Source of the DNA: an uncultured Gammaproteobacteria bacterium
GTDB taxonomy: Bacteria > Pseudomonadota > Gammaproteobacteria > JABDGN01
Direction of reading: 5' to 3'
DNA length: 64,000 nucleotides
Assembly (NCBI GenBank): GCA_963975985.1
Contig: CAXBIY010000003.1
Location: forward strand, 129,539-193,538
In this document: positions 9,966 through 34,350 of the stretch, one piece after another
Position numbering within the stretch: the first letter of the stretch is position 1
Layout: every line of letters begins with the position of its first letter
The notes under the pieces: generated by a model
What the model was told of the DNA's origin: nothing
The model's input: the letters and a program-made list of their open reading frames with translations, nothing else
Database searches by the model: none
Translations under genes and position numbers: made by a program

Positions 9966-11351
9966 ATGGGCCCAGTAAGACTTCCTATTAAGGATGCTAT
10001 TGATAAGCATTTGCCTACATTTGCTCAATCTCACCACCCCGCAATAGTAAATGAGCATTTTCTAATTCCTAGCAAACAATGGTTCAGATGGCATCTGCAT
10101 GAATTAGCTTTGTCAGAATGTGATTTGACTACTGAAACACCTACGTTTGAAGAAACACCTGAGATAGGTTCTCGTAGTGAAAAACAATGGACTGACTTCT
10201 TTTCACATTTATTCGCCAGCCAAATATTTTTGCGACAATATAAAGGTGCCTTACCAGACAAAAGCAAACTAAGCGGCAATCCTAACGCTAATCTCCACCA
10301 ATTATTAGAAGCCATTAAACTTGAAGAAACTTACTTAACAAAACCTTTGCCTGGCATTCCTGATGATTGGCCTGCTTATGAAAAGAGAAAACGCGGTAAA
10401 CAAGAGAGAAGCGCTCCTATTATTGAAGAGTTAAGAGCAAACCATTTACTGACTAGCTCACCCTTTCGGCTTATGTTTCAACATCACTTGAGTCAAGCGT
10501 CAGTCATTGCTATTGAAAAAAATACTCGACCTGGTAATCATGACGTGATCTCATTACCTCGCGATCTAGTACAACAACCACCTGGTCATGACGTACTCGA
10601 TGCTGTTAGCGCGCGTAGACAAAAAGAAGCTGATGAAGGAAAAACGCCATACCCTGTGGCACCTGAAAGCTATTTGCCCACAGCACTAGAACAAGACCCA
10701 TTGGTCCACACTCTCAGGCAACAATACATACAACCCACACCACGCTTGCCATTGGTACTAGGTGTCGATAACAAGTACCACCCCGCCTACCGCCGCCATG
10801 ATGTTAGCTTGCTAATGGAATTAGCGCTCTCAAAACCACTCACCTATGAAAGCAAAAAACTTATCATGCTGTGTATAGAGTTAGGCGACCTCAGCGCATT
10901 AATGCTTTATGGCGAATTATTGAAATACCAAACCACTGCTATTCTAACTGTTCTTGATGGCGGTGAAACACTATTGACTTGCCCATGGTATTTAATGCCT
11001 TTATGGCTAAAACTAAACAAGACAGCAAATGCTTCTGCCACAGGAGAAATCGATATACCAGCCATGAAGCAAGAACTACAAACATCTCTCGATCTAACAC
11101 TTGCTATGATTGACAGACACATCGAAACCCAGGCATCTGATAACTATAAAACCTTTCTCAATACGAAGTTTATGCCTAGAATTCATTGGTGGCTTAAATC
11201 GGTTCATCCCAAAAAAGATGACGACAGAAAAAGTAAACTTGGATTCAATGCGGCAATGCCTGATGATGAGCTTTTACGCCAACTCACACCAGAATTTTTA
11301 GATGCATTGCTAGCACGTTTCACATCTAAGGATGGAAAGGTCTACATGTAA
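9966..11351 (+). CDS. Hypothetical protein (461 aa)
   Basis: Long uninterrupted ORF with no signal peptide and no family motifs; follows a MITE. Confidence 0.4.
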   Translation: MGPVRLPIKDAIDKHLPTFAQSHHPAIVNEHFLIPSKQWFRWHLHELALSECDLTTETPTFEETPEIGSRSEKQWTDFFSHLFASQIFLRQYKGALPDKSKLSGNPNANLHQLLEAIKLEETYLTKPLPGIPDDWPAYEKRKRGKQERSAPIIEELRANHLLTSSPFRLMFQHHLSQASVIAIEKNTRPGNHDVISLPRDLVQQPPGHDVLDAVSARRQKEADEGKTPYPVAPESYLPTALEQDPLVHTLRQQYIQPTPRLPLVLGVDNKYHPAYRRHDVSLLMELALSKPLTYESKKLIMLCIELGDLSALMLYGELLKYQTTAILTVLDGGETLLTCPWYLMPLWLKLNKTANASATGEIDIPAMKQELQTSLDLTLAMIDRHIETQASDNYKTFLNTKFMPRIHWWLKSVHPKKDDDRKSKLGFNAAMPDDELLRQLTPEFLDALLARFTSKDGKVYM

Positions 11352-11384
11352 AGTAGTTTTCAAAACATCTTAAGAAACGATGAG

Positions 11385-12035
11385 CTAGCCCTCATGACTA
11401 TAATACTGCACACCAATTTTGATAACAGATCTATCGTTCTTCTTACGCCATTTATTCGTGTCTCGTAATGAATACACACATCCACAATATTCTTGCTGAT
11501 AAAACTTTTCATCTTTCGAAATTTCTATCATGCGGGCAGAACCACCGTGTTTGCGCCAGTTGTAAGTCCAATACGTCATGTCAGGATATTTAGCAGCAGA
11601 TTGTTCGCCGCTCGTATTGATTTGATTCATGTCTTTCCAACGTGAAATACCGAGGCTGCTAGAAATAACAGGGAAACCATGTTCGTGGGCATACAATGCG
11701 GTGCGATCAAAACGCATGTCGAAACACATGCTGCAACGAATGCCGCGTTCGGGTTCGTCTTCCATGCCTTTGGCTCTTGCAAACCAATTGTCGGTATCGT
11801 AATCGGCATCGACGAAGGGGATGTTGTGCTTATCGGCAAATTCGATGTTTTCATCTTTGCGGAGCAAGTATTCTTTTTCGGGGTGAATGTTGGGGTTGTA
11901 GAAAAAGATTGTGTAATCAATTTCGGATTCGATTAAGCGCAGCATCACTTCGCCAGAACATGGGGCACAGCAGGAATGCAATAAGAGCTTATCGGCGCCG
12001 TCAGGGAGTTCTAATTTCGGTATGGGTTTTGACAT
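11385..12035 (-). CDS. queH: Epoxyqueuosine reductase QueH (DUF208)
   Basis: '[11 protein letters not shown]' N-terminal signature and multiple conserved Cys. Confidence 0.75.
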
Positions 12036-12066
12036 GGTCAGTATATTACCAACTTTTCCATCACAG

Positions 12067-12480
12067 TCAACCGAGTATTTTTAAGGTCATGCTCAGAGGG
12101 AAATCTTGTATTTTCCCCCCATTAGTAATCAGCAAGACTTGTGAAACAGTGGTGATTTTACTGACGCTCAAGGTATATTTTAAGATACACGAAGCGTTTG
12201 CGGCTAATTTAGCAGGGCAATTATTAGCAATCGTGGTATCACGAACCAGTGGCGTTATAAAACCGGCAACATCTACCGGTGAAGTGATGGATAAATTATT
12301 TTTGATTAAATATTCGAAGGTATACGTCCTCCCCACATAGCCATCACAACTTAATTGATTCTTGGTTACTGTGCACTCCGCTGGTACTTGATAAAACGAC
12401 ACAACTAAGGGTTCTTTAGCCGCAAATGCAGTCGATAGTACCAATAAATTTAACACAACAACTTTAATAAAACATCGCAT
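12067..12480 (-). CDS. Secreted single-domain protein, paralog of the N-terminal domain of the 736-aa protein
   Basis: Signal peptide ...[10 protein letters not shown]; aligns residue-by-residue with aa 24-135 of the 13992-16202 product (AAKEPLxV..C..YVG..Y..EYL..NNL..TSP....GF.TP.VRD....NNC.A.LAA.A.CILKYT); conserved Cys pair. Confidence 0.5.
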
Positions 12481-12494
12481 TCGGTGTCTCCTAA

Positions 12495-13262
12495 TTAATA
12501 ATGCCCAAAGGTATAAGTAAAGCCGAATAACCAGACATTCGTGGCTAAATGCTGGCCAGGGCCCCTGCCCGTGCTACCGGATGCTGTTTCGGCAGAGCCT
12601 AAATAGGCATCACCTAAATCACTATATTCATAGCCAGTATAAAGTGTCATGAGAGGCGTTACGTGATAATCCAAACCTAAACCCACACGCCATGCAAAAT
12701 TAGCTGTCGTTTTATTAGCATAAACTAAACCTGGCTGCACAATGGGAGCCTTTGGCGTTGCGATATAACCGGAAGCCATGTTTTGACTAAAGCCTAAACC
12801 TGCTGAAATATAAGGCGCTAAACCATGCCATTCGACAATATCGGTTTTCACTGAAGCAAACAATTGCCAACTTTTAATATTGTACTGATAACTGTAATTA
12901 TTGAATTCAGGTAATTGAAATTCTAAGTAGTCATTGCCATTGACATTCGCGTTAGCTTGATTCGCAAAAGTAATGCCCAGGTTTATATAGGGGAACCAGA
13001 AATGTTTCATGCCAATTTGATAGCCTGCACTGAGTTCAGTCTCCAGCACGCCACTGCTAACATGAGCCGCACTGTAGTGATCGGTCTGAAAGCCCGGCAC
13101 AACATTGATATCACCCGCACCCGGCTGTGAGTAATACGCAACACCGACTCCCAGATCAAGATAAAAGCCCGATTGCGGATCAGTCGTGGCATCTGCTGTC
13201 ATAAAACCAATAAGTAACAGCACTAGTGTGCTAAAGCGGACAAGTAAACAACGTTTTTGCAT
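12495..13262 (-). CDS. Outer-membrane beta-barrel (porin-like) protein, paralog B
   Basis: Signal peptide; alternating Gly/Tyr-rich beta-strand pattern; C-terminal 'WLFGFTYTFGHY'; strongly similar to the 16214-17002 product; GGAGA RBS. Confidence 0.55.
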   Translation of the reverse strand: MQKRCLLVRFSTLVLLLIGFMTADATTDPQSGFYLDLGVGVAYYSQPGAGDINVVPGFQTDHYSAAHVSSGVLETELSAGYQIGMKHFWFPYINLGITFANQANANVNGNDYLEFQLPEFNNYSYQYNIKSWQLFASVKTDIVEWHGLAPYISAGLGFSQNMASGYIATPKAPIVQPGLVYANKTTANFAWRVGLGLDYHVTPLMTLYTGYEYSDLGDAYLGSAETASGSTGRGPGQHLATNVWLFGFTYTFGHY

Positions 13263-13350
13263 TAGTATGTCTCCAATACATCGAGCAGGCAATTAACGCG
13301 AACATACCATGGTTAGGCTTAAAAAACTACAGCCCGTACACTCGAGTACC

Positions 13351-13989
13351 TTATCCCAACAACTTTTGTGCAACTGTCAACCAAGCAGGAAAATCCACCG
13401 TGGGATGCCCTTTTCGACTGACAGGAATTGTTAATGGCACCAGCTCTTTCACAATGAATTGTCCTTGCAGCATGTCGGCAAGTTCTAAAAAACTTAGGCT
13501 GCCAGGAATTTTAACGCCAGTTTTGGCTTGCACTAATAAATCGGCATCGCGATCGCAGGTCATGTTAATCCATAAACCGTCATCGACGAGATGCTCATGA
13601 ATCAAACGGGCAAAATGTCGTCGCCCTTCTGCATTTTTAATGGTGTGTGCGCAAGCAATGTCATAGGCGATATCGTACTGCCCTAACTGCTGGTGTTGTT
13701 GCGTAAAGTTTAAGGTTTGAAAATTCACATCGGGGCCGTTAGTTTTCGCTGTGGCAATAGCTGTTGCTGATTCATCACAAGCTAAAATATTTTGGTAACC
13801 TTGTGTGGCCAATGCTTTTGCTTCTACGCCATAACCGCAACCGACTTCCAGTATCTTCGCATCTTTATCGACGATACGCTCGAACAACTGCAACACGGGT
13901 TGATGGGGCTCTGCATGTTTCCACGGTGTGTCGCCTTGCTGGTAATTGTCTTCCCAATCGCGGGTTTGGTTAATAGTTGTATTCATCAT
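13351..13989 (-). CDS. Class I SAM-dependent methyltransferase, TPMT/TehB-like
   Basis: 'W..NYQQGDTPW' TPMT-type N-terminus and 'ILEVGCGYGVEA' SAM motif I. Confidence 0.65.
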   Translation of the reverse strand: MMNTTINQTRDWEDNYQQGDTPWKHAEPHQPVLQLFERIVDKDAKILEVGCGYGVEAKALATQGYQNILACDESATAIATAKTNGPDVNFQTLNFTQQHQQLGQYDIAYDIACAHTIKNAEGRRHFARLIHEHLVDDGLWINMTCDRDADLLVQAKTGVKIPGSLSFLELADMLQGQFIVKELVPLTIPVSRKGHPTVDFPAWLTVAQKLLG

Positions 13990-13991
13990 AT

Positions 13992-16202
13992 TTAAGGTAA
14001 CTCTGAAATCGCTAAACCTTGTGTCGTGTAAATAGCATTTGTAGAAGCGCTACTATAAAGAAAACCATCGCTTGCCCATAGACCTGACGTCCTATTCCCA
14101 ATATTAGAATTACTGCCAGTGTAAACCAGCATTGAAGTAATTTTCCCATCACTGCCTAACGTGCAAACAGCAAATCCTACTTGACTAAATCCAACATACA
14201 AGTAGTCACCTGCTTGTGTCAAACTAGTTATCCCAACGTTATTATAAGGCAGAGCAAATGGTGTTTCAGAAGTAACCGTATCAGTATAAAACAACCATGT
14301 TGAATCAGGTAAATCATCGGCGCCCAAGTGTACCAGACCCAACCCTTTTTCAGTACCCACATACAAATAGTTGCCTATCCGAATCGCTCCATTAACATCA
14401 TAAGCGCTGACCGCTGATGGCCAACCAGTTGTTGTATTATCATATTTTGTCCAATCCTGAGTTACTGCACCCGTATCACTAATCGTGGCTGCATAAAAAC
14501 CCTTATCCCGTGTACCGACATACCACGCATTCCCGGTAATATAATTCACATAAGAATCAATCGAAGCATCAGCTGGAAAATTGAAATCACCGGTGGAGCC
14601 TGAGTTAGCATATAGATTCCAAGATGCATTAACCAAGCCTGTGCCTGAATCAACTGTGGCTGTATTAGCACCACCACCACCATTCCAGGCCTTAGTAATC
14701 GCGATATAATTATTATGTCGCACGACAGTGGTAACTTTCACACCGCTCAATATATTAAAACCACCCGTTGAAGTACCAGCACTATTTGTATATTTACTCC
14801 ACGTTGTTGGCACACCTTCAATCAACGACGTTGTATTAACACCAGCGTCATTTGCGACATATAAATGATCAGACTCATCAATGGTAACACCCTTCACAGA
14901 AGCTGAATTTAAATCACCACCAGTAGTGTCGTAAGTCGTCCAATCACTAGTGACTTCACTAGTTGTCGCATCAACCGGGGCAACAGCTAAACCTGAGTTA
15001 CTCGTTCCCACATACAAATAATCACCATGGCGAGCAACTGTAGTCACAGAAGTATTATTGTCACCTGGTAGCGGATGTGTTCCGTCACCATTTTCGTATA
15101 AGAATTTTTGCAAATCGCTATTAATCACATTAAACTCAGGTTCTACCGTAATAACATCGTTACCATCAACCTCCACACTTGCAGATACAGTTTGACTACC
15201 TGCCGTGCAATCACCTGATGTGCACTGAAACTGCAAACGCAAGTTACAAGTTGCCTCAGATGCCAAACTTCCTGAGGTTGAACAATCACCCGTTTCACCT
15301 GTTTGTTGCGATAACGCTGTCGCGGCAGAAACCGTATAACTCACCGCATCATCACTTGTATTCTGCATTTGATATAGCACTGTTACAGGTGCTGAATCAC
15401 CAGAAATTTGCTGAACGTGTGTCGCCCATCCACCACTCGGTGCCGTAGGTTCTATTGTTAAGGCCAATGGTGAGCTAGTATCAATAGCTTCCAAATCAAT
15501 ATTTTGTGAAAGCGCTTCATCACCGTCTTTCGTAACATCTAAACTCGTTGAAATGGCACCAACTTCAGTTGGTTGATACTGCAAGATTATCGTGCAAGCA
15601 CTACCCGCAGCTAATGAACCATCACAATCATTTTGCGAAATAGTCAAGCCATGTTCTTCACTGCTCAATGATGCTGAGACAATAGCCGCTGAGCCACCAT
15701 CATTGCTAACGGTATACGTAAATTCGTTATCCGTACCCACCTCTACGGTATCGGGCAAAGTTGGTGAGTCCAAAAAACTCAAAGCAGAAGGTGATTGCGA
15801 AAGTGTCATAGTCAGAGGAAATTGCTGCACTCTACCACTGTTACTGATATGCAAAATCTGACTCACGTTTCGTGCACTAGAAGACGTCACTGTATATTTG
15901 AGTATACACTCAGCACCTGCTGCTAATGTTGCTTGACAATTATTAACCACGTTGACATCACGCACCATAGGCGTTGAAAAACCGCTAATCTTAATAGGTG
16001 ATGTTGTAGGCAAATTATTGTGAACCAAATATTCAATGCTATATTCATTACCGACTGTACCGCTACAAGTTGCATTTGCACCACTGGTTGTGCAAGTTGT
16101 TGGTAGGCTTTGATACGTCACTTGCAGGGGCTCTTTCGCTGCAAAGGCGGATGTTGTGACAAACATGCTTAAGATAACCAAGCTATAAAATAAACGTTGC
16201 AT
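13992..16202 (-). CDS. Secreted multidomain protein: three Cys-pair Ig-like/beta-sandwich domains followed by a 7-bladed Reg_prop-like beta-propeller
   Basis: Signal peptide MQRLFYSLVILSMFVTTSAFA; three ~100-aa units with motif C...L.AG..C.(I/L).(Y/F); C-terminal half has 7 repeats of '(D/N)YLYVGT..GL.......W..Y(T/D)' like two-component-regulator propeller repeats; ATG at 16202 with AAGGAGA RBS. Confidence 0.55.
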   Translation of the reverse strand: MQRLFYSLVILSMFVTTSAFAAKEPLQVTYQSLPTTCTTSGANATCSGTVGNEYSIEYLVHNNLPTTSPIKISGFSTPMVRDVNVVNNCQATLAAGAECILKYTVTSSSARNVSQILHISNSGRVQQFPLTMTLSQSPSALSFLDSPTLPDTVEVGTDNEFTYTVSNDGGSAAIVSASLSSEEHGLTISQNDCDGSLAAGSACTIILQYQPTEVGAISTSLDVTKDGDEALSQNIDLEAIDTSSPLALTIEPTAPSGGWATHVQQISGDSAPVTVLYQMQNTSDDAVSYTVSAATALSQQTGETGDCSTSGSLASEATCNLRLQFQCTSGDCTAGSQTVSASVEVDGNDVITVEPEFNVINSDLQKFLYENGDGTHPLPGDNNTSVTTVARHGDYLYVGTSNSGLAVAPVDATTSEVTSDWTTYDTTGGDLNSASVKGVTIDESDHLYVANDAGVNTTSLIEGVPTTWSKYTNSAGTSTGGFNILSGVKVTTVVRHNNYIAITKAWNGGGGANTATVDSGTGLVNASWNLYANSGSTGDFNFPADASIDSYVNYITGNAWYVGTRDKGFYAATISDTGAVTQDWTKYDNTTTGWPSAVSAYDVNGAIRIGNYLYVGTEKGLGLVHLGADDLPDSTWLFYTDTVTSETPFALPYNNVGITSLTQAGDYLYVGFSQVGFAVCTLGSDGKITSMLVYTGSNSNIGNRTSGLWASDGFLYSSASTNAIYTTQGLAISELP

Positions 16203-16213
16203 CGACAATCTCC

Positions 16214-17002
16214 TTATTGACCGTGATTAAAATGTTCATGACCAAGCAAATAACTAAACCCAAACAACCATGTGTTAGTAGCTAAATTAGCTTGCCCAGG
16301 GCCTCTACCCGTTTGCCCACTATCAGTAGCGGCACTATCTAAGTAGGCATTACCCAAACCGGAATATTGATAACCAGCATAAACGGTAAACACTTTATTA
16401 ACATGATAATCTAGCCCCAGACCTAAGCGCCATGCAAAATTAGTCGTTGTGTTATTACCATAGGCTAAACCAGGTTGTACGACAGGTGCTTTAGGTGTTG
16501 AAGCATATCCATTAGCCGTGTTTTGATCAACACCTATACCTGCTTCAACATAAGGTGACAATCCATGCCAGTCAACAATATCGGCTTTCACATTCGCAAA
16601 TAATTGCCAAGTGCTTATGCTGTATTGATAACTGTAATTATTAAAATCTGATGATTGAAATTCAAGATAATCATGCCCTTTAACTGTGGCGCTCAATTGT
16701 TGTGAGTAAAGTAATCCAGCTTGAATCAGAGGAAACCAAAACCGTTTTGTGGCCATTTGATAGCCTGTACCCAGCTGATAATTAAATACACCATGGTTTA
16801 CTTTACCCGCACCAAATGCATCGGTTTCAAAATCTGGCACAACATCGACATTGCCTGCTGCCGGGTTCGCATAAAAAGCTTGGCCAGCACCAAAATCGAC
16901 ATAAATGCCTGATACGTTTTGCTGTGCGGCGTTGGCCATAGTTAATGATGATAATAAGCTGGTTAATAAAAATAAACGTGCAAAAAAATGACGCCCGTGC
17001 AT
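16214..17002 (-). CDS. Outer-membrane beta-barrel (porin-like) protein, paralog A
   Basis: Signal peptide MHGRHFFARLFLLTSLLSSLTMANA; long near-identical blocks with paralog B ('YLEFQ...FNNYSYQY...WQLFA.VK.DIV.WHGL.PY..AG.G..QN.A.GY..TPKAP.VQPGL.Y.N.TT.NFAWR.GLGLDYHV'); AGGAGA RBS. Confidence 0.55.
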   Translation of the reverse strand: MHGRHFFARLFLLTSLLSSLTMANAAQQNVSGIYVDFGAGQAFYANPAAGNVDVVPDFETDAFGAGKVNHGVFNYQLGTGYQMATKRFWFPLIQAGLLYSQQLSATVKGHDYLEFQSSDFNNYSYQYSISTWQLFANVKADIVDWHGLSPYVEAGIGVDQNTANGYASTPKAPVVQPGLAYGNNTTTNFAWRLGLGLDYHVNKVFTVYAGYQYSGLGNAYLDSAATDSGQTGRGPGQANLATNTWLFGFSYLLGHEHFNHGQ

Positions 17003-17069
17003 AGCATGTCTCCTTGAGGTTGAGCCGGCAGAAACATACCATGTTTGCACTTAAAAAACTATACGACAT

Positions 17070-17792
17070 TTACCCCAGCACTTCTGCGAATAGCTGTGCT
17101 GCGTAATTCCAAGTGCGTTCGCAAGCGACTTCGTTATAAACACGGCCCATTTCAGGTGCACCAATCAAAGCCGCATCAGGGTCGGTAAAGGCATGTTTTG
17201 TGTGACCAAAATATAGCATCTGCCAATCGACGTCGGCATCATTCATTTCTTTTTTAAAGTCCGCTAATTGTTCTGCCGATATTTGAGGATCATCATAACC
17301 ATGCAACGCCAACACTTTGGCTGTTATCGTTTCGTTAGGAATGTTTTCCGGTTTCATCAACACACCGTGCGCACTCACCATGGCTTTTATGTCGGCACCA
17401 CTGCGTGCCAAATCTAGACCGCACAAACCACCTAAGCAAAAACCGATAGCGGCCATTTTATTGGCATCAACCACATCTAGTTCACGCGCAGTTTCAAAAC
17501 CTAACATCGCTCGCGCTCTCGTTAACTCCCGATTCTCTAATAAGGGCATTAATGCCGCCATACATTCATCCATCGTGGTGCAATCTTTTCCCTCACCATA
17601 CATATCAACCACAAATGCGGCATAGCCTACTCGCACTAAACATTTAGCATTATCCATCGTCACACGATTCATGCCTTCCATCGCATGAAACAATAAGACG
17701 CAGGGCTGTTTACCATCAACAGCATCATCGTAGAATAATTGCCCAATATAATTCGTCTCACCATCAGAATATTTCACTTCTTGCTGCTGCAT
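17070..17792 (-). CDS. Dienelactone hydrolase family protein
   Basis: 'AIGFCLGG' G-x-C-x-G-G nucleophile motif and DLH-like length; start at MQQQEV (ATG 17792, GGAGG RBS). Confidence 0.65.
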   Translation of the reverse strand: MQQQEVKYSDGETNYIGQLFYDDAVDGKQPCVLLFHAMEGMNRVTMDNAKCLVRVGYAAFVVDMYGEGKDCTTMDECMAALMPLLENRELTRARAMLGFETARELDVVDANKMAAIGFCLGGLCGLDLARSGADIKAMVSAHGVLMKPENIPNETITAKVLALHGYDDPQISAEQLADFKKEMNDADVDWQMLYFGHTKHAFTDPDAALIGAPEMGRVYNEVACERTWNYAAQLFAEVLG

Positions 17793-17829
17793 GTTGCACC
17801 TCCTAGATAATGCGGTATAGTTCAAAGCT

Positions 17830-18861
17830 ATGAGAAAGATTAGCACAGTTATTTTATTAACGTTATCAATTATTGGGCATGCCAATAATTTACCCAACAT
17901 TAAACCTGCACCTTTACACCGAGGCGATGAAGTCGGATTAATCTCCAGCGGTTTTCGTGCCTCAAATATTGATATTACCTATGCTAAGCAACGTTTACAT
18001 GCTTTAGGATTGAAGGTTGTGCTGGGTGATAATATTCATAAACGTGCGGGCTATTTTGCCGGCACCGATTTAGAACGCGCGCATGATATTAATACAATGT
18101 TCGCTAATCCACGCATTAAAGCCATTTTTGAAATACGCGGTGGTTGGGGCAGCCAGCGTGTGCTGCCATTAATTGATTTTGATAATATTAAAAAACACCC
18201 CAAAATATTTGTTGGATTTAGTGATATTACGTCACTGTTACTCGCGATTCACGCCAAAACGGGGTTGATTACCTTTCATGGCCCAATGGGTATTGAACCT
18301 TGGCCGGCTTTTACTGTCGATAATCTAAAGCAAGTGTTGTTTGAAGGTAAAGCGCTTACGTTTAAAAATCCTAAGCCGAAAATAGACAAACAAGTTGATA
18401 ATATTAAAACCGATAGTTATGAAACGCATGTCGTACGATCAGGCACAGCTACTGGCAAATTGTTAGGTGGTAATCTAACGGTGTTAACCGCCCTGCTTTC
18501 AACACAATACCAGCCCGACTGGAAAGAAAGCATTTTATTCGTAGAAGATGTCGGCGTGAGTTATTACCAGATTGATCGCATGTTAGCGCAACTACAATCA
18601 GCCGGTGTGTTAAAACAAATTAAAGGGTTTGTGTTTGGTGAATGCACGGGCTGTCATAAAGCCAATGCGGATGGCTATGATTTGCAGCAAGTGTTAGATG
18701 AGTATATTAAACCACTGCATATTCCCGCTTATTCTGGCGCGACGTTTGGGCATGAGCCGATGAACTTTACGTTGCCTGAGGGAACTAAAGTGAAGCTTAA
18801 TGCAGGTGAGCGGACGATAAAGATGCTGGCGCCAGCTGTTTTATCGCCAGCCTCCTCCTAA
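17830..18861 (+). CDS. ldcA: LD-carboxypeptidase (peptidase S66, LdcA-like), with signal peptide
   Basis: 'VGFSDITSLL' Ser-nucleophile motif; S66 length. Confidence 0.7.
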   Translation: MRKISTVILLTLSIIGHANNLPNIKPAPLHRGDEVGLISSGFRASNIDITYAKQRLHALGLKVVLGDNIHKRAGYFAGTDLERAHDINTMFANPRIKAIFEIRGGWGSQRVLPLIDFDNIKKHPKIFVGFSDITSLLLAIHAKTGLITFHGPMGIEPWPAFTVDNLKQVLFEGKALTFKNPKPKIDKQVDNIKTDSYETHVVRSGTATGKLLGGNLTVLTALLSTQYQPDWKESILFVEDVGVSYYQIDRMLAQLQSAGVLKQIKGFVFGECTGCHKANADGYDLQQVLDEYIKPLHIPAYSGATFGHEPMNFTLPEGTKVKLNAGERTIKMLAPAVLSPASS

Positions 18862-18862
18862 G

Positions 18863-18973
18863 TAGGGTGGATAAAAGTTCGTGCGGCAGCACGGACATAT
18901 CCACCATTCAAACGTTGACTTAACACCGCTGGTGGATATGTCCGGCTTTCAGCCGAACTTTTACCCACCCTAC
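18863..18973. repeat. MITE-like palindromic element (copy 2, complete)
   Basis: 111 bp; TIRs GTAGGGTGGATAAAAGTTCG / CGAACTTTTACCCACCCTAC; internal IR GGACATATCCACCA...GCTGGTGGATATGTCC; sits exactly between convergent ldcA and ABC-F stops. Confidence 0.7.
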
Positions 18974-20550
18974 AAGACATATGCTTGATCGATATTAATG
19001 TTCTCTAAAAACAGCTTATCGTGTGATATCATTATCAACGCACCTTCGTAACAATTTAACACTTGTTCTAATGCTAAAATACTATCTAAATCTAGATGGT
19101 TTGTGGGCTCGTCGAGAATTAATAATTGTGGCGCATGTTTAGAAAGCAATACACAAGCTAAACCAGCTCTTAGTTTCTCACCGCCGCTTAATACACTAAC
19201 TAATTTGTCAGCCGCACGATTACGAAATAAGAACTGTGCTAACGCAGATCGAGTATCATTTTCTGAGGCTTCGGGATTTAAGCGCTTATAGTTCTCAACG
19301 ACTGATTGCTTAACATCGAGTGAACTGACTTGCTGGTCAACATACTGTATGCGATCAGTCCCTAATTCAACTTCACCCTGAGCTTTTAAGCGCCCAAGAA
19401 TAATATTCACTAATGTTGTTTTGCCGGCACCATTGCAGCCAGTGATAGCCAGACGCTGTGGGCCCTGCATAAGCAAGGTAATATTCTTTAGCACATCTTT
19501 TTGCTCATAAGCAAAACTCACATCATTTAATGACAGCATCATCTTTCTGGCTGGTACATGTGTATTTGGCATAACCACCTTAATTTTATCAACCACTTCT
19601 AATTTAGCTGTAGCCTCATCAAGTTGTTCTTGCGTTCTCTCGGTCCGCATGGAGTTTTGTAAGCGCATACGGTGTTGTGTTTTCTCACTACGTCCTTTCA
19701 TACCATCCAATGTTACGGTATCGAGTACTCGGTCACGCCGCATCTGTTTACCCTTCGCCACTTTCTGCTCGTGCATTTCTCTAGCATATTGAATGCTACG
19801 TGCAGTTTTACGTTGTATTTGCTTTGCATCATCTGCTTGTTGCTGTAAAGCTGCTTGCTCAATGGTTTTTTGTTGTCGGTAAAAATCAAAATTACCGCCA
19901 TAGAGCTTCATACCCAAGCTATCAAGTTCGATGAGCGCTGTCATTTGATTGAGCAATTCGCGGTTGTGACTCACCACAACTAAGGCTTTACCCCATTGCT
20001 GGATATTTTTGTAGAGCAGTTGCTTGCTTTGCGCATCCAAATTATTACTGGGCTCATCTAGCAATAATAAATCCGCATCAGACATAAAAGCTCGGCATAA
20101 GAAAATTTTGGTTTGCTCGCCGCCACTAAAATCTTGTAACGGCTTTTGAAAATCAACATCGAGCAAGCCTAATTCAGCTAACGCTAGAGCGTATCGCTGA
20201 TGCACCAACCAATCATCAGCTAAAGTTGTATAGTCTTGCGCATCATCATTGCCCGCCTCAATACGCTGTAATGCTGCTAATTTATTGGTAATACCCAATG
20301 CTCTAGCCACGCTGAATTGTTGATAAGCCGCATAGTTTTGCGAGCAGTAATGCACCATCTTGCGACGCTCAACATTACCCTCAGTTGGCAACAGCTCGCC
20401 AACAATAAGCCGTAGCAGCGTAGTTTTGCCCACACCATTACGCCCAACAATAGCTAACTTGTCAGCTGCGTTAATACTGAAATCGATATCATTTAATAAT
20501 GTTCGATCGTCTAAAGAATAAAATACGTGATGTAACTGAATAATCGCCAT
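18970..20550 (-). CDS. ABC-F family ATPase (two tandem ABC domains, no TMD; Uup/EttA-like)
   Basis: Two Walker A sites ('GRNGVGKTTLL', 'GCNGAGKTTL'), two LSGGE signatures and an inter-domain linker. Confidence 0.85.
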   Translation of the reverse strand: MAIIQLHHVFYSLDDRTLLNDIDFSINAADKLAIVGRNGVGKTTLLRLIVGELLPTEGNVERRKMVHYCSQNYAAYQQFSVARALGITNKLAALQRIEAGNDDAQDYTTLADDWLVHQRYALALAELGLLDVDFQKPLQDFSGGEQTKIFLCRAFMSDADLLLLDEPSNNLDAQSKQLLYKNIQQWGKALVVVSHNRELLNQMTALIELDSLGMKLYGGNFDFYRQQKTIEQAALQQQADDAKQIQRKTARSIQYAREMHEQKVAKGKQMRRDRVLDTVTLDGMKGRSEKTQHRMRLQNSMRTERTQEQLDEATAKLEVVDKIKVVMPNTHVPARKMMLSLNDVSFAYEQKDVLKNITLLMQGPQRLAITGCNGAGKTTLVNIILGRLKAQGEVELGTDRIQYVDQQVSSLDVKQSVVENYKRLNPEASENDTRSALAQFLFRNRAADKLVSVLSGGEKLRAGLACVLLSKHAPQLLILDEPTNHLDLDSILALEQVLNCYEGALIMISHDKLFLENINIDQAYVL

Positions 20551-20742
20551 AACAAAAACCTCTATGCTTGTGGATGTAGAAATAAGCTAAGAAAGTTTTA
20601 GTTGTTCATCGGCGCTCGCTCCTGATTGAGTGAATAGAAATAGTACAGCATAAATAGAAAATGTTCAATAACGCAATAAACCCTATTGCATTTCAGTAAT
20701 ATTTAATTTATATTTCTCCATGCATAATCAAAATAGGAAAAC

Positions 20743-21198
20743 TTGCAAATGAATACAAAGCTGATCAAATCACTGCTTTTCATGACTTCTTTAAGCTTCT
20801 TTCAAGGTGTGGCACATGCAGCACCCGATCTACAACACTACTGCCCTAGCCCTTATGGCTTAACATTTAAATCAACTAAGCAGGATATGGGTAAGGTTGA
20901 TGGCATGGGTGAAACGGCAGCTAAAAATGTACATTTTGAGAACCCGTACATGCGTTCTAAACAACACGATCCTGCTTACGTGCCAGCACCGACATTAGAT
21001 GAGCATGGTTATTTTGAGGAAAGCAAAATAGATGCTGGGCGTACAGCATATTACAACGATGGTAGCTTAACTTGTTATTATCTCTACCCAATCGCCGCTG
21101 ATCGCAGCACGATGGAGCGTTTAATCTTGATATCCGATCATCATGCTTTCCAGCAATGCGAAAATGGTCAAGTCATCGTTCGCACCGAAAATTGTTAA
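20743..21198 (+). CDS. Secreted hypothetical protein
   Basis: Signal peptide ...FFQGVAHA|AP; Cys-containing 151-aa product with no family motif. Confidence 0.4.
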   Translation: MQMNTKLIKSLLFMTSLSFFQGVAHAAPDLQHYCPSPYGLTFKSTKQDMGKVDGMGETAAKNVHFENPYMRSKQHDPAYVPAPTLDEHGYFEESKIDAGRTAYYNDGSLTCYYLYPIAADRSTMERLILISDHHAFQQCENGQVIVRTENC

Positions 21199-21298
21199 AA
21201 TTAAACCATCCCTATCAATCATTGTTTGGTGGGGATTTTATTGCAAAGCACTTATATTTACCCTATCATCGCGCCGCATCTTATATATAAGAGACAAT

Positions 21299-22474
21299 AT
21301 GCGCCAACTATCATTTTTACCCTTTTTACTACTGATTGTAGCGCTTGCGGGCGTGGGGCAAATCACTAATACTATTTATGTGCCTGCGATGCCGGCCATG
21401 GCGCGTTATTTTGTTACGACACCGAGCCATATTCAAACCGTTATGGCGGTTTATTTACTTAGCTACGGCATATCACAGTTTATTTACGGCCCACTTTCAG
21501 ACAGGCTTGGACGACGGCCGGTTGTCTTAATCGGTTTAAGTATTTACCTCACCGCAACAGTCATTGCCATATTTTCAACTAACTTTACTGAAATTGTTGT
21601 TGGCAGTTTTTTACAAGGCTGTGGTACTGGTGTTGGTGGCATGATGGCTCGCACCGCGATGCGTGATCGCTACACGGGTAAGTTGTTACAAAAAGCTAAC
21701 AGCTATGTCAGCATGGCGTTAATATTTTCACCTCTCATTGCACCTTTGTTAGGTGGCTTTTTATATCTGATAGCGGGTTGGCGATTGATCTTTATTTTCT
21801 TGTTGTTACTTGGTGCAGGTGTTTTAGCAGCACAATATTTCTTTTGCCAAGAAACTAATGTATTTAAACGCAGAACCTCTATACGTCGTGTGTTTTACAA
21901 TTACAGTCTTGCTTTGAGCCATCGGCAATTCATTTGCAATACTATAATACTCGTCGCAACGTTTAGTGGCTTCGCTGTATTTGAATCATCAGCCGGTTTG
22001 ATTTTACATCAAGCATTGCATTATACGGCTGGCATGATCAGCCTATTATTTATCGTGCCCATGCCAGCTTATATAGCGGGCTCATTTGTCGCGGCTAAAT
22101 TTAGCAATCGCGATAGCTTCAATGGCTTTATGTTAGTCGGCGTTGCCTGTTTGACAATCGGTAGCTTAAGCATGTTAGTACCCGCATTATTTGGCTACGT
22201 TAGCACCACCGCCATTTTACTACCCATCGCTATTTACATGTTTGCAGCAGGCATGCTATTCCCCACCTCAACCACACAAGCTATTATGCCTTTTCCAAAA
22301 ATGGCCGGCACTGCGGGCGCCATTTTAGGTGGAGCACAAAACATGGGCGCAGGCATATTCGCGTTAATTTCAGCTACGCTGCCACAAACCACTCAACTCC
22401 CTTTAGCGGCCATACTCTGTGCCGTTACACTCATCGTGATTGGCGCCTATTTAAGCCTAAATCGTAACAATTAA
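21299..22474 (+). CDS. MFS transporter (Bcr/CflA subfamily)
   Basis: 12 TM helices; start MRQLSFLPFLLL with AAGAGA RBS. Confidence 0.75.
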   Translation: MRQLSFLPFLLLIVALAGVGQITNTIYVPAMPAMARYFVTTPSHIQTVMAVYLLSYGISQFIYGPLSDRLGRRPVVLIGLSIYLTATVIAIFSTNFTEIVVGSFLQGCGTGVGGMMARTAMRDRYTGKLLQKANSYVSMALIFSPLIAPLLGGFLYLIAGWRLIFIFLLLLGAGVLAAQYFFCQETNVFKRRTSIRRVFYNYSLALSHRQFICNTIILVATFSGFAVFESSAGLILHQALHYTAGMISLLFIVPMPAYIAGSFVAAKFSNRDSFNGFMLVGVACLTIGSLSMLVPALFGYVSTTAILLPIAIYMFAAGMLFPTSTTQAIMPFPKMAGTAGAILGGAQNMGAGIFALISATLPQTTQLPLAAILCAVTLIVIGAYLSLNRNN

Positions 22475-22607
22475 GCCCTCTTTACACGCATTTTACATTC
22501 TATAATCATTCAACTAACATTATTTCGGTTAATATAGCGCCAAATTATTGACTACAACAGTGGTTATTGGATAATGCCACTAGTCAAATCAATGAGAGGA
22601 AGCCTTT

Positions 22608-23474
22608 ATGTCAATCGTGAGAATTGTAATAGCGTTTTTTGCACTATTAAGCTTAACTGCCTGTGTACATCATTTATCAGAATCAGAATGTTTACACACT
22701 AACTGGCAAACTGTCGGTGAGCAAGATGGCACGCAAGGTAAACCCAAGAAAGATTTCTCCGGCTACATTGCTGATTGCGCAAAATACAATTTGACGATTA
22801 ACACACAATCTTATAATCAAGGTTATGCACAGGGTATCAAAGAATACTGTACCCCAACACAGGCATTAGGTTTGCAAGCCGGTCAAGGTGGCGCTCCCGT
22901 TGCCGAGATTCAAGCACGTGAAACAGCTTGTGCTGCCGTACATTTATCACTTAGCTTAAAAGATTTTGATATCGGTTATAACAAAGGCATCACGCAATAT
23001 TGCACTAAAGCTCAAGGGCAGCAAGATGCTATTGCCGGCAAAATCGCCAGCCTTGCTTGTGCAACTAAACATATAACGGCTTATACAGACGGATATAATG
23101 CCGGTGCAGCTCAAGCTTGTAGCAATGTATCAACCGCAACTGAATTAGGTAAAGCCGGCAACGCCTACCCTAATGAATGTGATGTGAGCAAATTTCCACT
23201 ATTTAAAAAAGCTTATGACCACGGCGTTGTCTTGAAGCAAAACATTGATAACATCCAAAATCAATTGGATCAAGTTAACTCTGGCGTTAGCAACATGGAA
23301 AATCAATATCACTTCACACTTTCTCCCAATGGTGGCGTCAATTATGACTCTGGAAAATATCCTTCTGGCGAGACGACAGGAAGCATGCTCAGTTTGATGG
23401 CACAATACCAAGACCTACGTACCCAACAAACTGCTTTACAAAATAAACTTAAAGTAGCGCAAGCTGCGACTTAA
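22608..23474 (+). CDS. Lipoprotein with three internal 'GY..G...YC' repeats (DUF2799-like N-terminus)
   Basis: Lipobox LSLTAC; 'C...NW...G..DG..G' motif followed by three ~50-aa Cys-containing repeats; predicted TTGACT-N16-GATAAT promoter upstream. Confidence 0.45.
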   Translation: MSIVRIVIAFFALLSLTACVHHLSESECLHTNWQTVGEQDGTQGKPKKDFSGYIADCAKYNLTINTQSYNQGYAQGIKEYCTPTQALGLQAGQGGAPVAEIQARETACAAVHLSLSLKDFDIGYNKGITQYCTKAQGQQDAIAGKIASLACATKHITAYTDGYNAGAAQACSNVSTATELGKAGNAYPNECDVSKFPLFKKAYDHGVVLKQNIDNIQNQLDQVNSGVSNMENQYHFTLSPNGGVNYDSGKYPSGETTGSMLSLMAQYQDLRTQQTALQNKLKVAQAAT

Positions 23475-23490
23475 ACTAGGAGAGTTAAAC

Positions 23491-24531
23491 ATGAAAAAAC
23501 TCACAAGTATTTTAATTTTATGTGCCAGCTTAATCATGCTGCCATTTGTCAGCAATGCCGCCCCTCAACCCGTCACGGGCGATACGGGGATGCCAACAAT
23601 TGCGGTCTTGAACTTCACTATCACACATCAAGTAATGCAGATGTATTATCAAAATGTAGAATACAAGGACATGCATGGAAAAAAGAAGCATGGCCAACAC
23701 GGTACTCGTTACAATGAAAGCAACACGGCTAAATACAAACAAGAGTATGATGAAGCTACTAGCTCGATGACTAACAGCATCACGAACTATTTAGTGCAAA
23801 GCCATAAATTCAATGTGGTCGAGCGCAATAAAGTTCAACAAGTGGCTGACGAATTAAATTTTAACGACTCGCAATATGTGTCACCACAAAATGCCGTTAA
23901 AATTGGTCACATGCTTGGCGCTGATTATTTAGTGATGGGTAGCATCGAAAACATTGATGTGCGCCATGAGAAAGACAGCAACCCTTACATGCAAGATGGT
24001 GAGTTAATGTACCACGGTGCGTTAGCCATCAATGTGCAAGTTGTCGATACTAAGAGCGGACAAATCGTTGCTTCATATCCTGTTCAAGTGCAAAAGAAAC
24101 TGTATCCACACAGCGATAAGATTATGAATAAGTCATTGTTCTTGAATCAGCTAAAAGATAAAGCAGCACAACAAGCCACTAACGATATATTACAAGCCAT
24201 CTTCCCGCTGCAAATTATGCAAGTGCAGGGTAAGCAAGTATTTATCAATCGCGGCACAGGTGCTGACTTTAAAGTTGGCAGCATCATGACGGTTTATAAA
24301 ACGGGCAAAGCCTTAGTTGACCCTGACACAGGCAATAGCCTTGGTGTCACTAAAAGCAAAATTGGCACAGTGAAAATCACACAAATCCAAACTAAATATT
24401 CTACCGCTTCAATTTTGACGGGCGATGCAACGCAGATGCAAGGTGCAGTGGTTGAGTTAACGGATAAAAACCCTGATACCAATAAACAACCCATGTCACC
24501 AGGCTCTAGCCCTAAACCGATTCAATGGTAA
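23491..24531 (+). CDS. CsgG/LpoB-fold family lipoprotein with extra C-terminal beta-rich domain
   Basis: 'KFNVVERNKVQQVADELNF...IGHMLGADYLVMGSIENI' matches the CsgG-family core; signal peptide. Confidence 0.5.
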   Translation: MKKLTSILILCASLIMLPFVSNAAPQPVTGDTGMPTIAVLNFTITHQVMQMYYQNVEYKDMHGKKKHGQHGTRYNESNTAKYKQEYDEATSSMTNSITNYLVQSHKFNVVERNKVQQVADELNFNDSQYVSPQNAVKIGHMLGADYLVMGSIENIDVRHEKDSNPYMQDGELMYHGALAINVQVVDTKSGQIVASYPVQVQKKLYPHSDKIMNKSLFLNQLKDKAAQQATNDILQAIFPLQIMQVQGKQVFINRGTGADFKVGSIMTVYKTGKALVDPDTGNSLGVTKSKIGTVKITQIQTKYSTASILTGDATQMQGAVVELTDKNPDTNKQPMSPGSSPKPIQW

Positions 24532-24534
24532 TCC

Positions 24535-25938
24535 ATGTTGAAACAGTTATCGCTTAATCTATTGTCCATCCTGCTAGTGTCTTTACTAGCAGGTTGTTCG
24601 ATGTCGAGCACCTTTAATGCTTACCCCAATCAAGCAAAACCCATGCGCGCGGATATTGCGAAAGGCAAGTTCCAAGATGCGGCTGATCGGGTTAAATCTA
24701 AAACTGATACGAATGATAAAATCTTATACCTAATGGAATACGGTCGGATTGAACAACTTGCAGGCAATTTCACGCAAAGCCGCGACATCTACACGCAAGC
24801 CATTGCTAATGTCGATGCGCTGCAACAAAAAGCTAAAATTACTGCAACAGGTATGTTTGACCAAAGCGCTGCCCTGCTAGTCAACGACAATGCTATTCCT
24901 TACCAGGGCTACCCTTATGAATATATTTTACTACATCAATACCAAGCGCTGAACTATGTTGCTTTAGGTGATGTGTCTGGTGCATTAGTTGAAGTGCGCC
25001 GTGCTGATGAAGAGCAAAGCTATACGCAGCAGCTGAATCAAAAGACCTTAGCCGCAGCTGACGCAAAAGCCAAAAAAGAATCCATTAACAACAACGTTGA
25101 CTTCAACCAAAAACAATTCCAACAAATGAATGCTGCAGCCGCTGCTGTTAAAAATCAATATTTAGATGCTTACAGTTATTATTTTGGTGGCCTGATGTTT
25201 GAAGCAACAGGCAGTAGTAATAATGCTTATGTCGCGTACAAACAAGCCTTGTCGATTTCACCTAGCAACCCTTATCTGCAACAAAATGTTTTACGCTTGG
25301 GCAAACAATTAAGCATGCCGGATTTTACGCGTTACCAAAAAACTTATCCGCAAACGATTATTAACCCTAAACCGAACCAAGGTAAAATTGCCATCATTTT
25401 TGAGCAAGGCTTTATTCCGTTGCGTAAAGCATTCAATTTACCACTACCCATTAATGGTTCTGGCATTGTGCCCATATCCATGCCCTACTATGCTGACCGA
25501 CACTTCCCAACACCTGCATTGCTAGTGAGCCAAGGTAAAGAGACGCTTGGCAAAACATCGGCTATTTTGAATTTACAAAACTTATCGGCCCGAGCCTTGA
25601 AAGATGAGTATCCGGTATTGGTCGTGCGAGCTATTTTACGCTTTGCCGCCAAAGCCACCATGGAACACTCCGCACAAAAGAATGCCGGCGATGTAGGCGG
25701 CATTGTTGCCAACCTTTACACTGTTTTTAGTAGTGGTGCGGATTTGAGAACTTGGTCTACCCTGCCTAATGATGTACAAATCATGCAAGCTTACGTAAAT
25801 GCAGGTGAACAATCGCTCACTTTGTCATATAATGGCAAGCGACAGACCATGCCCGTTAAAGTCACTAAAGGCCAAACGGTGCTAGTTTGGGTGGTGGCTT
25901 ATCCAACCCGTTTGGCAACCAATGTTTTTCCACTATAA
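24535..25938 (+). CDS. Lipoprotein, TPR-like helical (uncharacterised, CsgG-associated type)
   Basis: Lipobox LLAGC; helical repeats; 4-nt gap from the upstream gene. Confidence 0.4.
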   Translation: MLKQLSLNLLSILLVSLLAGCSMSSTFNAYPNQAKPMRADIAKGKFQDAADRVKSKTDTNDKILYLMEYGRIEQLAGNFTQSRDIYTQAIANVDALQQKAKITATGMFDQSAALLVNDNAIPYQGYPYEYILLHQYQALNYVALGDVSGALVEVRRADEEQSYTQQLNQKTLAAADAKAKKESINNNVDFNQKQFQQMNAAAAAVKNQYLDAYSYYFGGLMFEATGSSNNAYVAYKQALSISPSNPYLQQNVLRLGKQLSMPDFTRYQKTYPQTIINPKPNQGKIAIIFEQGFIPLRKAFNLPLPINGSGIVPISMPYYADRHFPTPALLVSQGKETLGKTSAILNLQNLSARALKDEYPVLVVRAILRFAAKATMEHSAQKNAGDVGGIVANLYTVFSSGADLRTWSTLPNDVQIMQAYVNAGEQSLTLSYNGKRQTMPVKVTKGQTVLVWVVAYPTRLATNVFPL

Positions 25939-25947
25939 GGACTGATA

Positions 25948-26337
25948 ATGAAACTGAAATCACTATTATTAACTCTCATGACTATCATACTCGGCAGCTT
26001 TCTGTTGAGCAGCTGTGGTTGTAGCTATTCAGAAGCCAGCATGCCATTAGGGCAAACCGTTGCAAAAATCAATGAAAAAGCTGACTTCACTACCATTACC
26101 GAATTGCGTAGCCGTGAAATTGGCAATGTCCTCAACGCCAGTGCTAGCATCAAAAGCAACAGCGTCGACAACAAAATGCTAAGTTACCGCTTCACATGGT
26201 TCGACAAAGATGGCTTCCAAGTTGGTACACCCGGCCCCTGGACACCGATTTCACTCACCGCTGGTTCTAACACGCAAGTACAAGGTACTGCACCTAACCC
26301 CAGCGCCAAAACTTTTAAACTTAATGTTTGTGCATAG
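25948..26337 (+). CDS. ycfL: YcfL-like lipoprotein (DUF1425)
   Basis: Lipobox LLSSCG; 'YRFTWFDKDGFQV' matches the E. coli YcfL 'YRFYWYDAQG' core; lies directly upstream of lpoB as in E. coli. Confidence 0.6.
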   Translation: MKLKSLLLTLMTIILGSFLLSSCGCSYSEASMPLGQTVAKINEKADFTTITELRSREIGNVLNASASIKSNSVDNKMLSYRFTWFDKDGFQVGTPGPWTPISLTAGSNTQVQGTAPNPSAKTFKLNVCA

Positions 26338-26348
26338 GAGACAACACA

Positions 26349-26927
26349 ATGAAAATCTTTAAAACCCTAACCGCTATCGTGTTTGCTAGTAGCTTGCTTG
26401 TCGCTTGCTCTGGTGGCGTACAATACACAGATCCCGGCGCAGTAGACACAACAGGCTTAGGCTTTGGCTCTACTGACTTACAAACAACCGTGCAAACAAT
26501 GGTGTCAGGTTTATTAACCTTCCCACCGGTTGTGCAGTTAACCAGTAAAGAGCGTCCCATATTATTTGTTGCCGGTGTTAAAAACACGACTAACCAACAA
26601 ATCAATACCGATATGATTAACAACATGATGATGACGCAATTGATTCAATCAGGTAAATTCCGCTTCACCGATATGTCTGTAGTGAAAAAAATGCGTGATC
26701 AGTTAAACTATCAGAGCGACAGCGGTAATGTTGATCCACAAAGTGTTATTAAAATCGGCCAACAAGTCGGTGCTCAATACATGCTATACGGTAGCGTAAG
26801 TGCAATTGAAAAATCTGGCGATGGCAAAACATCCATGTACTTCCTAGTCAGCATGCGTTTAATGAATATTAAAACGGGTATTGTTGAATGGGCGGATCAA
26901 AAACAGATTCGTAAAGTTCAAAGTTAG
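26349..26927 (+). CDS. lpoB: Penicillin-binding protein activator LpoB (copy 1)
   Basis: Lipobox LVACSG; 'SGKFRFTDMSVVKKMRDQLNYQSDSGNVDPQSVIKIGQQVGAQYMLYGSVSA' parallels E. coli LpoB 'NGKFTLVSAQQLSMAKQQLGLSPQDSLGTRSKAIGIARNVGAHYVLYSSASG'. Confidence 0.7.
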   Translation: MKIFKTLTAIVFASSLLVACSGGVQYTDPGAVDTTGLGFGSTDLQTTVQTMVSGLLTFPPVVQLTSKERPILFVAGVKNTTNQQINTDMINNMMMTQLIQSGKFRFTDMSVVKKMRDQLNYQSDSGNVDPQSVIKIGQQVGAQYMLYGSVSAIEKSGDGKTSMYFLVSMRLMNIKTGIVEWADQKQIRKVQS

Positions 26928-26972
26928 TATTAATTCCTTCTCCGTTTGCCGAAGAAGGAATATAATTGAAAT

Positions 26973-27082
26973 GTAGGGTGGATAAAAATTCGTGCGAAGC
27001 ACTGAACTATCCACCAGCGGTCTATCATCAAGCACTGCTGGTGGATATGTCCGGCTTTCAGCCGAACTTTTATCCACCCTAC
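26973..27082. repeat. MITE-like palindromic element (copy 3) between the two lpoB paralogs
   Basis: 110 bp with both TIRs intact; it creates a spurious in-frame N-terminal extension of the next ORF. Confidence 0.7.
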
Positions 27083-27115
27083 TTAGTTGTGAGCATTAAT
27101 TCTAGAGGTTCGATC

Positions 27116-28597: not shown

Positions 28598-28751
28598 AGA
28601 ATACCACCATTATTGTTTCCATATGGAAACACATGGTTTAATTATAGCCACTTCTGCTAATAATGAAAGAGGGTTATACTGGCTTTGGAAACTTAGAAGA
28701 TGGTTAGGGATTCCCGCAACACGGGAACCACATTATTAAAAGGAACAAACC

Positions 28752-30290: not shown

Positions 30291-30337
30291 TCGAAATATA
30301 GTTCGGCAAGTTTTTAAACACATGCTAAAATTGTTGC

Positions 30338-32993: not shown

Positions 32994-33020
32994 TGTTTCT
33001 TCTCAGTTCCCGATGCTGAT

Positions 33021-33129
33021 GTAGGGTGGATAAAAGATTCACATCGCGAATCATATCTACCACTCAGCCTATATCCAACACCGCTGGTGGATATGTCCGC
33101 GCTGCCGCGTGAACTTTTATCCACCCTAC
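33021..33129. repeat. MITE-like palindromic element (copy 4)
   Basis: 109 bp with TIRs GTAGGGTGGATAAAAG / CTTTTATCCACCCTAC; between recQ and the MFS gene. Confidence 0.7.
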
Positions 33130-33167
33130 TTTAGTACAGCAGTTCATTTGTGTGCGTGTTAAGAAAA

Positions 33168-34343: not shown

Positions 34344-34350
34344 TGGGGCG

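Follow-up and report, generated by a model that had tools for sequence, protein, structure and literature searches.

Intergenic palindromes of an uncultured marine gammaproteobacterium are very probably GTAG-tagged REPs arranged as inverted doublets

REPs are palindromic units of 20-50 nt that are preceded by a conserved tetranucleotide, usually GTAG, and a tnpAREP/RAYT gene flanked by its REPs is termed a REPtron, the gene itself normally being present in single copy (PMC8266576). In E. coli, the REP/BIME elements and TnpAREP (YafM; PDB 4ER8) constitute a group 2 REPtron, in which a 5' GTAG is followed by a long imperfect palindrome with an irregular zone; this group is recognised by long REPs whose stem contains a bulge or irregular zone (PMC8266576). 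The active site of TnpAREP is composed of H59/H61, Y115, N119 and H123 (PMC3479197) and the E. coli enzyme cleaves at a CT dinucleotide (PMC8266576). A super-family of GTAG REPs has also been described (Di Nocera et al. 2013), in which the tag is found in >90% of units and sub-families carry complementary stem changes and G-T pairs. Its members form HH dimers 20-100 bp apart, flank RAYT genes and favour the spaces that separate unidirectional or convergent ORFs, at no more than 20 bp from 3' ends, and the GTAG can donate a TAG stop (PMC3733652). In P. fluorescens SBW25, inverted REP doublets together with their spacer form REPINs, which act as one replicating unit (Bertels and Rainey 2011, PMC3116915).

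Elements comparable to these systems are found in a 64-kb stretch of DNA from an uncultured marine gammaproteobacterium (the window, by which the whole stretch that was analysed is meant). A preliminary description had placed four copies of a MITE-like palindrome in this DNA, and their positions were right to within one base, the copy said to begin at 18863 actually beginning 1 nt earlier. The elements, together with the two genes that adjoin one of them, are as follows.

18862 to 18973: complete REP doublet with its GTAG ends outward, filling the entire gap between the convergent ldcA-like and ABC-F genes.
17830 to 18861: ldcA-like gene, whose TAA stop at 18859-18861 adjoins the doublet 18862-18973.
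18970 to 20550, minus strand: ABC-F gene, whose TAG stop at 18970-18972 lies within the GTAG of the same doublet.
18862 to 18909, plus strand: REP unit composed of GTAG, the GGTGGATA foot, the upper stem TTCGTGC/GCACGGA and TATCCACC.
18926 to 18973, minus strand: inverted REP unit (67.6 bits), whose GTAG gives the TAG stop of the ABC-F gene.
9818 to 9917: REP doublet between the divergent murB (8779-9777, minus strand) and a gene at 9966-11351.
26973 to 27082: REP doublet between the tandem lpoB paralogues 26328-26927 and 27116-27712, with units of 61.1 and 71.8 bits.
33021 to 33129: REP doublet with units of 44.8 and 67.0 bits, placed between recQ (31182-32993) and an MFS efflux gene (33168-34343), which are in tandem on the minus strand.
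6512 to 6536, minus strand: orphan REP head (GTAGGGTGGATAAACA...) without a 3' arm, the head proper lying at 6521-6536.

The elements are 100-112 bp in length and all window copies are extragenic, as the preliminary description had held, including the copy that exactly occupies the space between two convergent stops. Three of the four are also complete, as had been proposed; the doublet at 9818-9917 alone is truncated, its left unit scoring 61.3 bits with the covariance model and its degenerate right unit (9877-9917) only 11.9 bits. The unit at 18862-18909 scores 68.5 bits (E 1.4e-18) and has a local hairpin z of -6.0, whilst the left unit of the doublet 26973-27082 bears a variant head, AAAAA...GGA(T/A); this doublet is present, in identical form, in an independent ENA contig (L080). 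When up to three mismatches are allowed, the 16-mer GTAGGGTGGATAAAAG occurs at nine sites in the window compared with 0.32 expected, nine being reached by 0 of 100 shuffles, and eight of these sites are the outer ends of the four elements, the ninth being the orphan head at 6521-6536. A covariance-model scan of the whole 64 kb with filters off returned seven full units, one truncated unit and no others, and an Rfam search of the window produced no matches at gathering score. The genes around the elements are ordinary chromosomal ones, comprising murB, the ldcA-like gene, the ABC-F gene, two lpoB genes, recQ and MFS pumps.

Each element consists of two inverted copies of a ~48-nt unit, as is evident when the halves are compared in one orientation. 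The centre of a unit is made up of an 8-nt arm and its complement with a 3-4-nt loop between them; GTAG, GGTGGATA and AAA precede it, in this order, and one base, TATCCACC and AGCGG(T) follow. An alignment of 54 units, 50 of them distinct, taken from the window and from related loci, defines a core of about 44 nt plus tail, which contains two 8-bp helices. Positions G1, T2, A3 and G5 are invariant across these 54 units and G4 is at least 90% conserved. The foot helix (GGTGGATA/TATCCACC) is invariant in sequence and 98% paired. The upper helix changes freely yet pairs in 92% of cases, and both partners have changed at 8/8 pairs; its covariation score is 0.349 compared with 0.133 in shuffles, none of 500 of which reaches this value, and its pairing is 29-43% in a control in which the partner is slid by 1-3 columns. 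An asymmetric internal loop (AAA versus 1 nt) separates the two helices in all units.

The preliminary description had envisaged one long hairpin, bounded by 16-bp TIRs and enclosing a nested internal inverted repeat. The nested repeat (GGACATATCCACCAGCGG...) is present and each whole element, as ssDNA, does fold into a long hairpin (dG -20 to -42 kcal/mol, z -4.4 to -11.3). However, upper-stem pairing within doublets is 92% inside a unit compared with 61% across the two units, so the conserved structure is a pair of local hairpins and not a single long one, and the long hairpin is a by-product of two similar palindromes set head to head. Similarly, the inverted ends exist, as the eight outer GTAGGGTGGATAAAAG sites, but are in fact the GTAG-plus-foot heads of two separate REP hairpins.

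A classical MITE would be a deletion derivative of an IS encoding a DDE transposase, mobilised by cut-and-paste through its TIRs and leaving TSDs. In well-known examples, including the Correia elements of Neisseria and ERIC/IRU, the TIRs are read by DDE-type enzymes and the target is duplicated (TA for Correia). The window family resembles Correia and ERIC/IRU elements in its size range (100-150 bp), inverted ends, intergenic position and capacity to form a long RNA hairpin, and its ~110 bp length, 16-bp inverted ends and many dispersed copies are what such an origin would produce. Unlike these elements, it has a modular two-hairpin build, an HUH transposase and no TSD: the target-site duplication that had been suggested as a check was sought at the element flanks and none of fixed length was found, the direct repeats of 0-4 nt having no preferred length and resembling those of randomly re-paired flanks. 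Moreover, the ends belong to self-contained hairpins that also occur singly, and the internal stems covary inside units, not between the ends. The window and ~290 kb of related loci (~350 kb together) yielded no IS with a DDE transposase and these ends, the sole transposase-like gene found with these ends being an HUH/Y1 RAYT. Descent from a classical MITE is thus very improbable. The term MITE-like remains apt in so far as the elements are dispersed, palindromic, probably non-autonomous and present in many copies, but not with respect to the missing TSD, the HUH/Y1 RAYT and the two-hairpin units.

The elements are instead, with high confidence, a family of GTAG-tagged REPs occurring as inverted doublets with GTAG outward (HH dimer / BIME / REPIN). 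The features that define REPs are present here, namely a GTAG-led palindrome, compensatory changes, dispersed extragenic copies, inverse pairs with a linker and, in the same metagenome assemblies, a REP-flanked RAYT. All of the reported hallmarks of the GTAG super-family are likewise found in the window family, a comparison made on the described traits of the super-family, of which 24 families are listed (PMC3733652). The traits found are all already published for GTAG REPs and no new principle is added.

In common with the E. coli system, the family combines a 5' GTAG with a long imperfect palindrome and an irregular zone. It also has two unit subtypes joined by a linker into inverted pairs, which are extragenic, located at gene 3' ends and without TSDs, and a single tnpAREP flanked by REPs, the two proteins being ~49% identical with their catalytic residues kept. 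The heads are related (GTAGGCCGGATAAGG in E. coli REPs compared with GTAGGGTGGATAAAAG in the window family). In contrast, the foot is GGTGGATA here and GCCGGATA in E. coli, the linker differs, the window family has an upper stem of 8 bp with high variability, and the host is an uncultured marine gammaproteobacterium. No linker of the BIME-1 type with an IHF site was noticed among the doublets. The long bulged stem that characterises group 2 is found in the window family; the group of its RAYT (2 or 3) is nevertheless uncertain, since homologues of 56-63% identity are flanked by short near-perfect palindromes and only pairwise similarity to the E. coli protein was measured.

Altogether 21 doublets align end to end with the linker included, 17 of them being 109-112 nt in length. 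A linker of ~20 nt, AGCGGTCTATCA..AACCACTGCT, is conserved in the doublets, the GTAG ends point outward, and many doublets pair two unit subtypes, AAAAG...GGACATATCC and AAAAA...GGATATATCC. The doublets thus behave as one inherited unit, and single REP units also occur. As in SBW25, the whole ~110 nt is conserved between loci, spacer included, the singlets look like remnants and the RAYT is single copy. Unlike SBW25, where the REPs, as in Pseudomonas generally, belong to group 3 and are short and, for the most part, perfect palindromes (PMC8266576), the units here are long and bulged, and a dominant master sequence was not seen within the ~350 kb sampled.

The RAYT was identified on a 2.9-kb Tara contig (L089), in which a 172-aa ORF occupies 363-881 on the minus strand. 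Its product matches Pfam Y1_Tnp (E 3.3e-10) and E. coli TnpAREP (PDB 4ER8; E 5.6e-45 over residues 1-162, ~49% identity), and retains the HUH histidines (H59/H61 equivalents) as well as the equivalents of Y115, N119 and H123. The gene has REPs of the window's family both before and after it. This glpD-RAYT locus is also present in a second assembly (L106), where clusters of REPs in alternating orientation lie either side of the RAYT, one REP overlapping the stop codon of the neighbouring glpD. The glpD-RAYT locus, with REPs on both sides, is a REPtron. The cluster contains one full unit in L089 compared with five alternating units of 145-bp period in L106, a difference due either to varying copy number or to the collapse of a tandem BIME array during assembly. 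The RAYT is on record at this one locus only, on three contigs, and none was found in the window by an HUH...Y motif regex or by tblastn with an approximate YafM query. ENA assembly ERZ3422065 holds both the RAYT and a 2-kb contig that is 100% identical to window positions 26715-28768, each at ~2x coverage. It is therefore likely, judging from their co-occurrence, their comparable coverage and the two repeat families that they have in common, and not from contiguity, that the RAYT and the window derive from one genome.

One of the ways in which the preliminary description could have failed was the confinement of the copies to this region, and this is not the case. JGI/Tara metagenome contigs were scanned with the exact pattern GTAGGGTGGATAAAAGN{14,26}TATCCACC (24 fixed bases), which identified 25 loci, of which 24 come from a single Tara Oceans assembly, on 15 scaffolds that total 812 kb. 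These 24 loci share with the window only the elements themselves; they contain 31 exact matches to the pattern, and the covariance model finds 49 units in them. Of the seven full window units, four are found with the exact pattern; on this basis, the 31 exact matches suggest a density of ~1 unit per 15 kb on the Tara scaffolds compared with 1 per 7-9 kb in the window, and hundreds of units per genome is a fair extrapolation from these two densities. A match from a different metagenome (L099) was rejected, being a simple, unrelated perfect hairpin and not a member of the REP family. One Tara locus (L087) carries, at 2936-9284, a tandem array of ~200-aa genes that are similar in size, five of which each have one GTAG REP 9-17 nt past the stop. 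The 3' flank of these five REPs is identical (AAGATAA), as if genes and REPs had been duplicated together as modules.

The divergence of the copies bears on a further explanation, in which the REPs are fossil or domesticated, having spread long ago and being now immobile, with their hairpins kept for a host role as 3'-end protectors, attenuators or protein-binding sites and a RAYT that no longer moves them. No two doublets are identical, their pairwise identity having a median of 68% and a maximum of 91%, so recent activity is unproven. The decayed copies at 9877-9917 and 6512-6536 and the strong bias of placement towards gene 3' ends are also in keeping with immobility, and TnpAREP itself is regarded as domesticated, single-copy and without demonstrated in vivo REP mobility (PMC8266576). 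Against this, more than 50 units share an almost unchanging GTAG and 8-bp foot and have upper stems that drift, a pattern predicted by continued sequence-specific protein recognition and not by generic RNA hairpin function. In addition, the RAYT retains all of its catalytic residues, and identical unit variants recur at unlinked loci, in up to four copies each. Wholly fossil elements are on balance an unlikely explanation, albeit one of some weight. The ~55 units, whose foot is constant and whose upper stem is hypervariable, constitute together with their cognate RAYT a clean natural mutagenesis series for the reading of substrates by TnpAREP.

Placement of the elements relative to genes is strongly biased. 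Among 30 classifiable elements, 28 have tandem or convergent genes as their neighbours, the other two being placed between divergent ones. Many GTAG heads start 1-18 nt past the stop of a gene reading toward them, and seven heads provide, with their TAG, the stop codon itself, as they do for the window ABC-F gene (18970) and for the MFS gene at 6533-7738 (minus strand), whose stop lies in the orphan head 6512-6536. The elements mark operon ends in a poorly known marine gammaproteobacterium. Upstream of the tag, the four bases 5' of GTAG hardly ever include G, and CT occurs within 8 nt 5' of it at 36 of 61 heads compared with 30% of random 8-mers. This enrichment is at most suggestive of a RAYT cleavage site, by analogy with the E. 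coli enzyme.

Such placement is also what would be expected of plain intrinsic terminators that had come to look alike through convergent selection, since the elements lie mostly behind genes. In the iREP direction, the GC-rich upper stem is followed by AACTTTTATC (4 T), which passes a lax terminator scan at four units (18893-18880, 27052-27064, 33098-33111 and 33052-33036). However, the T-run is short and interrupted, and one copy lies between divergent genes, where no terminator is needed. The total of terminator-like sites is not clearly above shuffles, with 10 at 6000-20000 compared with 12.3 (sd 3.9) in shuffles and 25 at 20001-35000 compared with 15.1 (sd 4.4). Furthermore, a 16-nt head with at most two mismatches, together with a conserved linker, cannot arise by convergence over dozens of loci. 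Convergent terminators can hence be set aside as extremely improbable.

For the GTAG-tagged REP doublets favoured here, a mode of spread can be proposed by analogy with the E. coli and Pseudomonas systems, in which case the doublets would be mobilised by the RAYT. The single-copy enzyme (HUH/Y1) would bind a folded single-stranded REP through GTAG and the foot, cut near the REP, at a site that in E. coli is CT, and then join the strand elsewhere, a reaction that could spread doublets without target duplication. A doublet inserted behind a gene would be transcribed as a 3' hairpin. Given that the GTAG ends point outward, a transcript arriving from either side ends on an iREP-reading unit, and from either transcription direction the second unit would read a GC-rich stem followed by AACUUUUAUC. 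The doublet could thereby attenuate transcription weakly in both directions and stabilise 3' ends, and it could also affect translation termination where it lies against a stop codon. Effects as terminators or on RNA stability, which the preliminary description had mentioned for such elements, are plausible; terminator activity is nevertheless doubtful, as only four U's follow the upper stem, and effects of the doublets on termination, stability or translation are proposed by analogy with the same two systems.

Related REPs accompany RAYT homologues in other lineages. Proteins of 56-63% identity to the RAYT are found in a Gallionellaceae MAG (L108/L109), a Brocadiaceae MAG (L110) and Oceanicoccus sagamiensis CP019343 (L111). 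The REPs flanking these genes share with the window family a GTAGGGTGGA head and a ...TCCACC 3' arm, common to all. Unlike the window units, which have an extra 8-bp variable upper helix and a bulge, they are 22-34 nt in length and have little or no second helix. Among the matches listed in a 16-mer scan, most of them due to chance, related REPs occur in Gallionella, beta-proteobacterial, Opitutia and delta-proteobacterial MAGs and in Cedecea. The GTAGGGTGGA head is conserved across phyla and therefore seems to serve a widespread clade of RAYTs as a recognition module. It is conceivable, if rather doubtful, that one such clade kept GTAG+GGTGGA...TCCACC across Gammaproteobacteria, Betaproteobacteria (Gallionellaceae), Planctomycetota (Brocadiaceae) and probably others, and that the window lineage added a free-evolving second helix. 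Should this sharing reflect horizontal spread of RAYT and REPs, it would qualify the view of almost purely vertical inheritance.

The elements also affect gene annotation, in which they are best masked as REP/BIME instead of being called as genes. The longest ORF for the second lpoB gene (26966-27712, plus strand) has a TTG start at the REP doublet and reads through it (MKCRVDKNSCEALNYPPAV...), and a Tara gene call (P0121) of 244 aa (735 bp) compared with 198 aa contains the same 46-codon lpoB extension through the doublet. In L089, a spurious 124-aa ORF arises from pseudo-peptides encoded by REPs, for example CRVDK...YPPAV. The tandem lpoB paralogues that lie either side of the doublet (26328-26927 and 27116-27712) are themselves ~60% identical (P0004 versus the query). 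The closest LpoB proteins besides the identical sequence (P0001) share 61-63% identity, the nearest named ones being those of Piscirickettsia, Fangia, Facilibium and gammaproteobacterial MAGs; the source organism therefore has no closely related sequenced genome. Exact-protein look-ups gave no record for the ABC-F and RecQ proteins of the window, and for the second LpoB protein only the 2-kb ENA contig.

A second palindromic family, unrelated to the GTAG family, is present in the window at 3888-3915 (minus), 3945-3972 (plus), 6413-6440 (minus) and 6458-6485 (plus). On one strand it reads CGTC-ATCCCGCGG-CTTGA-CCGCGGGAT, a CGTC-tagged REP-like hairpin found mostly as inverted doublets. Besides these four window copies, there are 17 in the Tara loci (L082, L084, L085, L095, L096, L097, L098, L101, L102 and L104). 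CGTC REPs are a class recorded chiefly in alphaproteobacteria, for which no transposase is known (PMC3733652). A genome that carries both GTAG and CGTC families could accordingly be a place to ask whether one RAYT serves both.

The window contains further repeats of other kinds. A 291-nt direct repeat of 73% identity (12661-12951 and 16401-16691, 3.7 kb apart) lies in the minus-strand ORFs 12495-13292 and 16214-17050, which are probably paralogous genes. Finally, degenerate tandem coding repeats of 27-63 nt, comprising approximately six or seven copies of CGTCAACCACGTGATGA.CAACAA, are found at 43384-43726 within an ORF of 811 aa (41567-44002).
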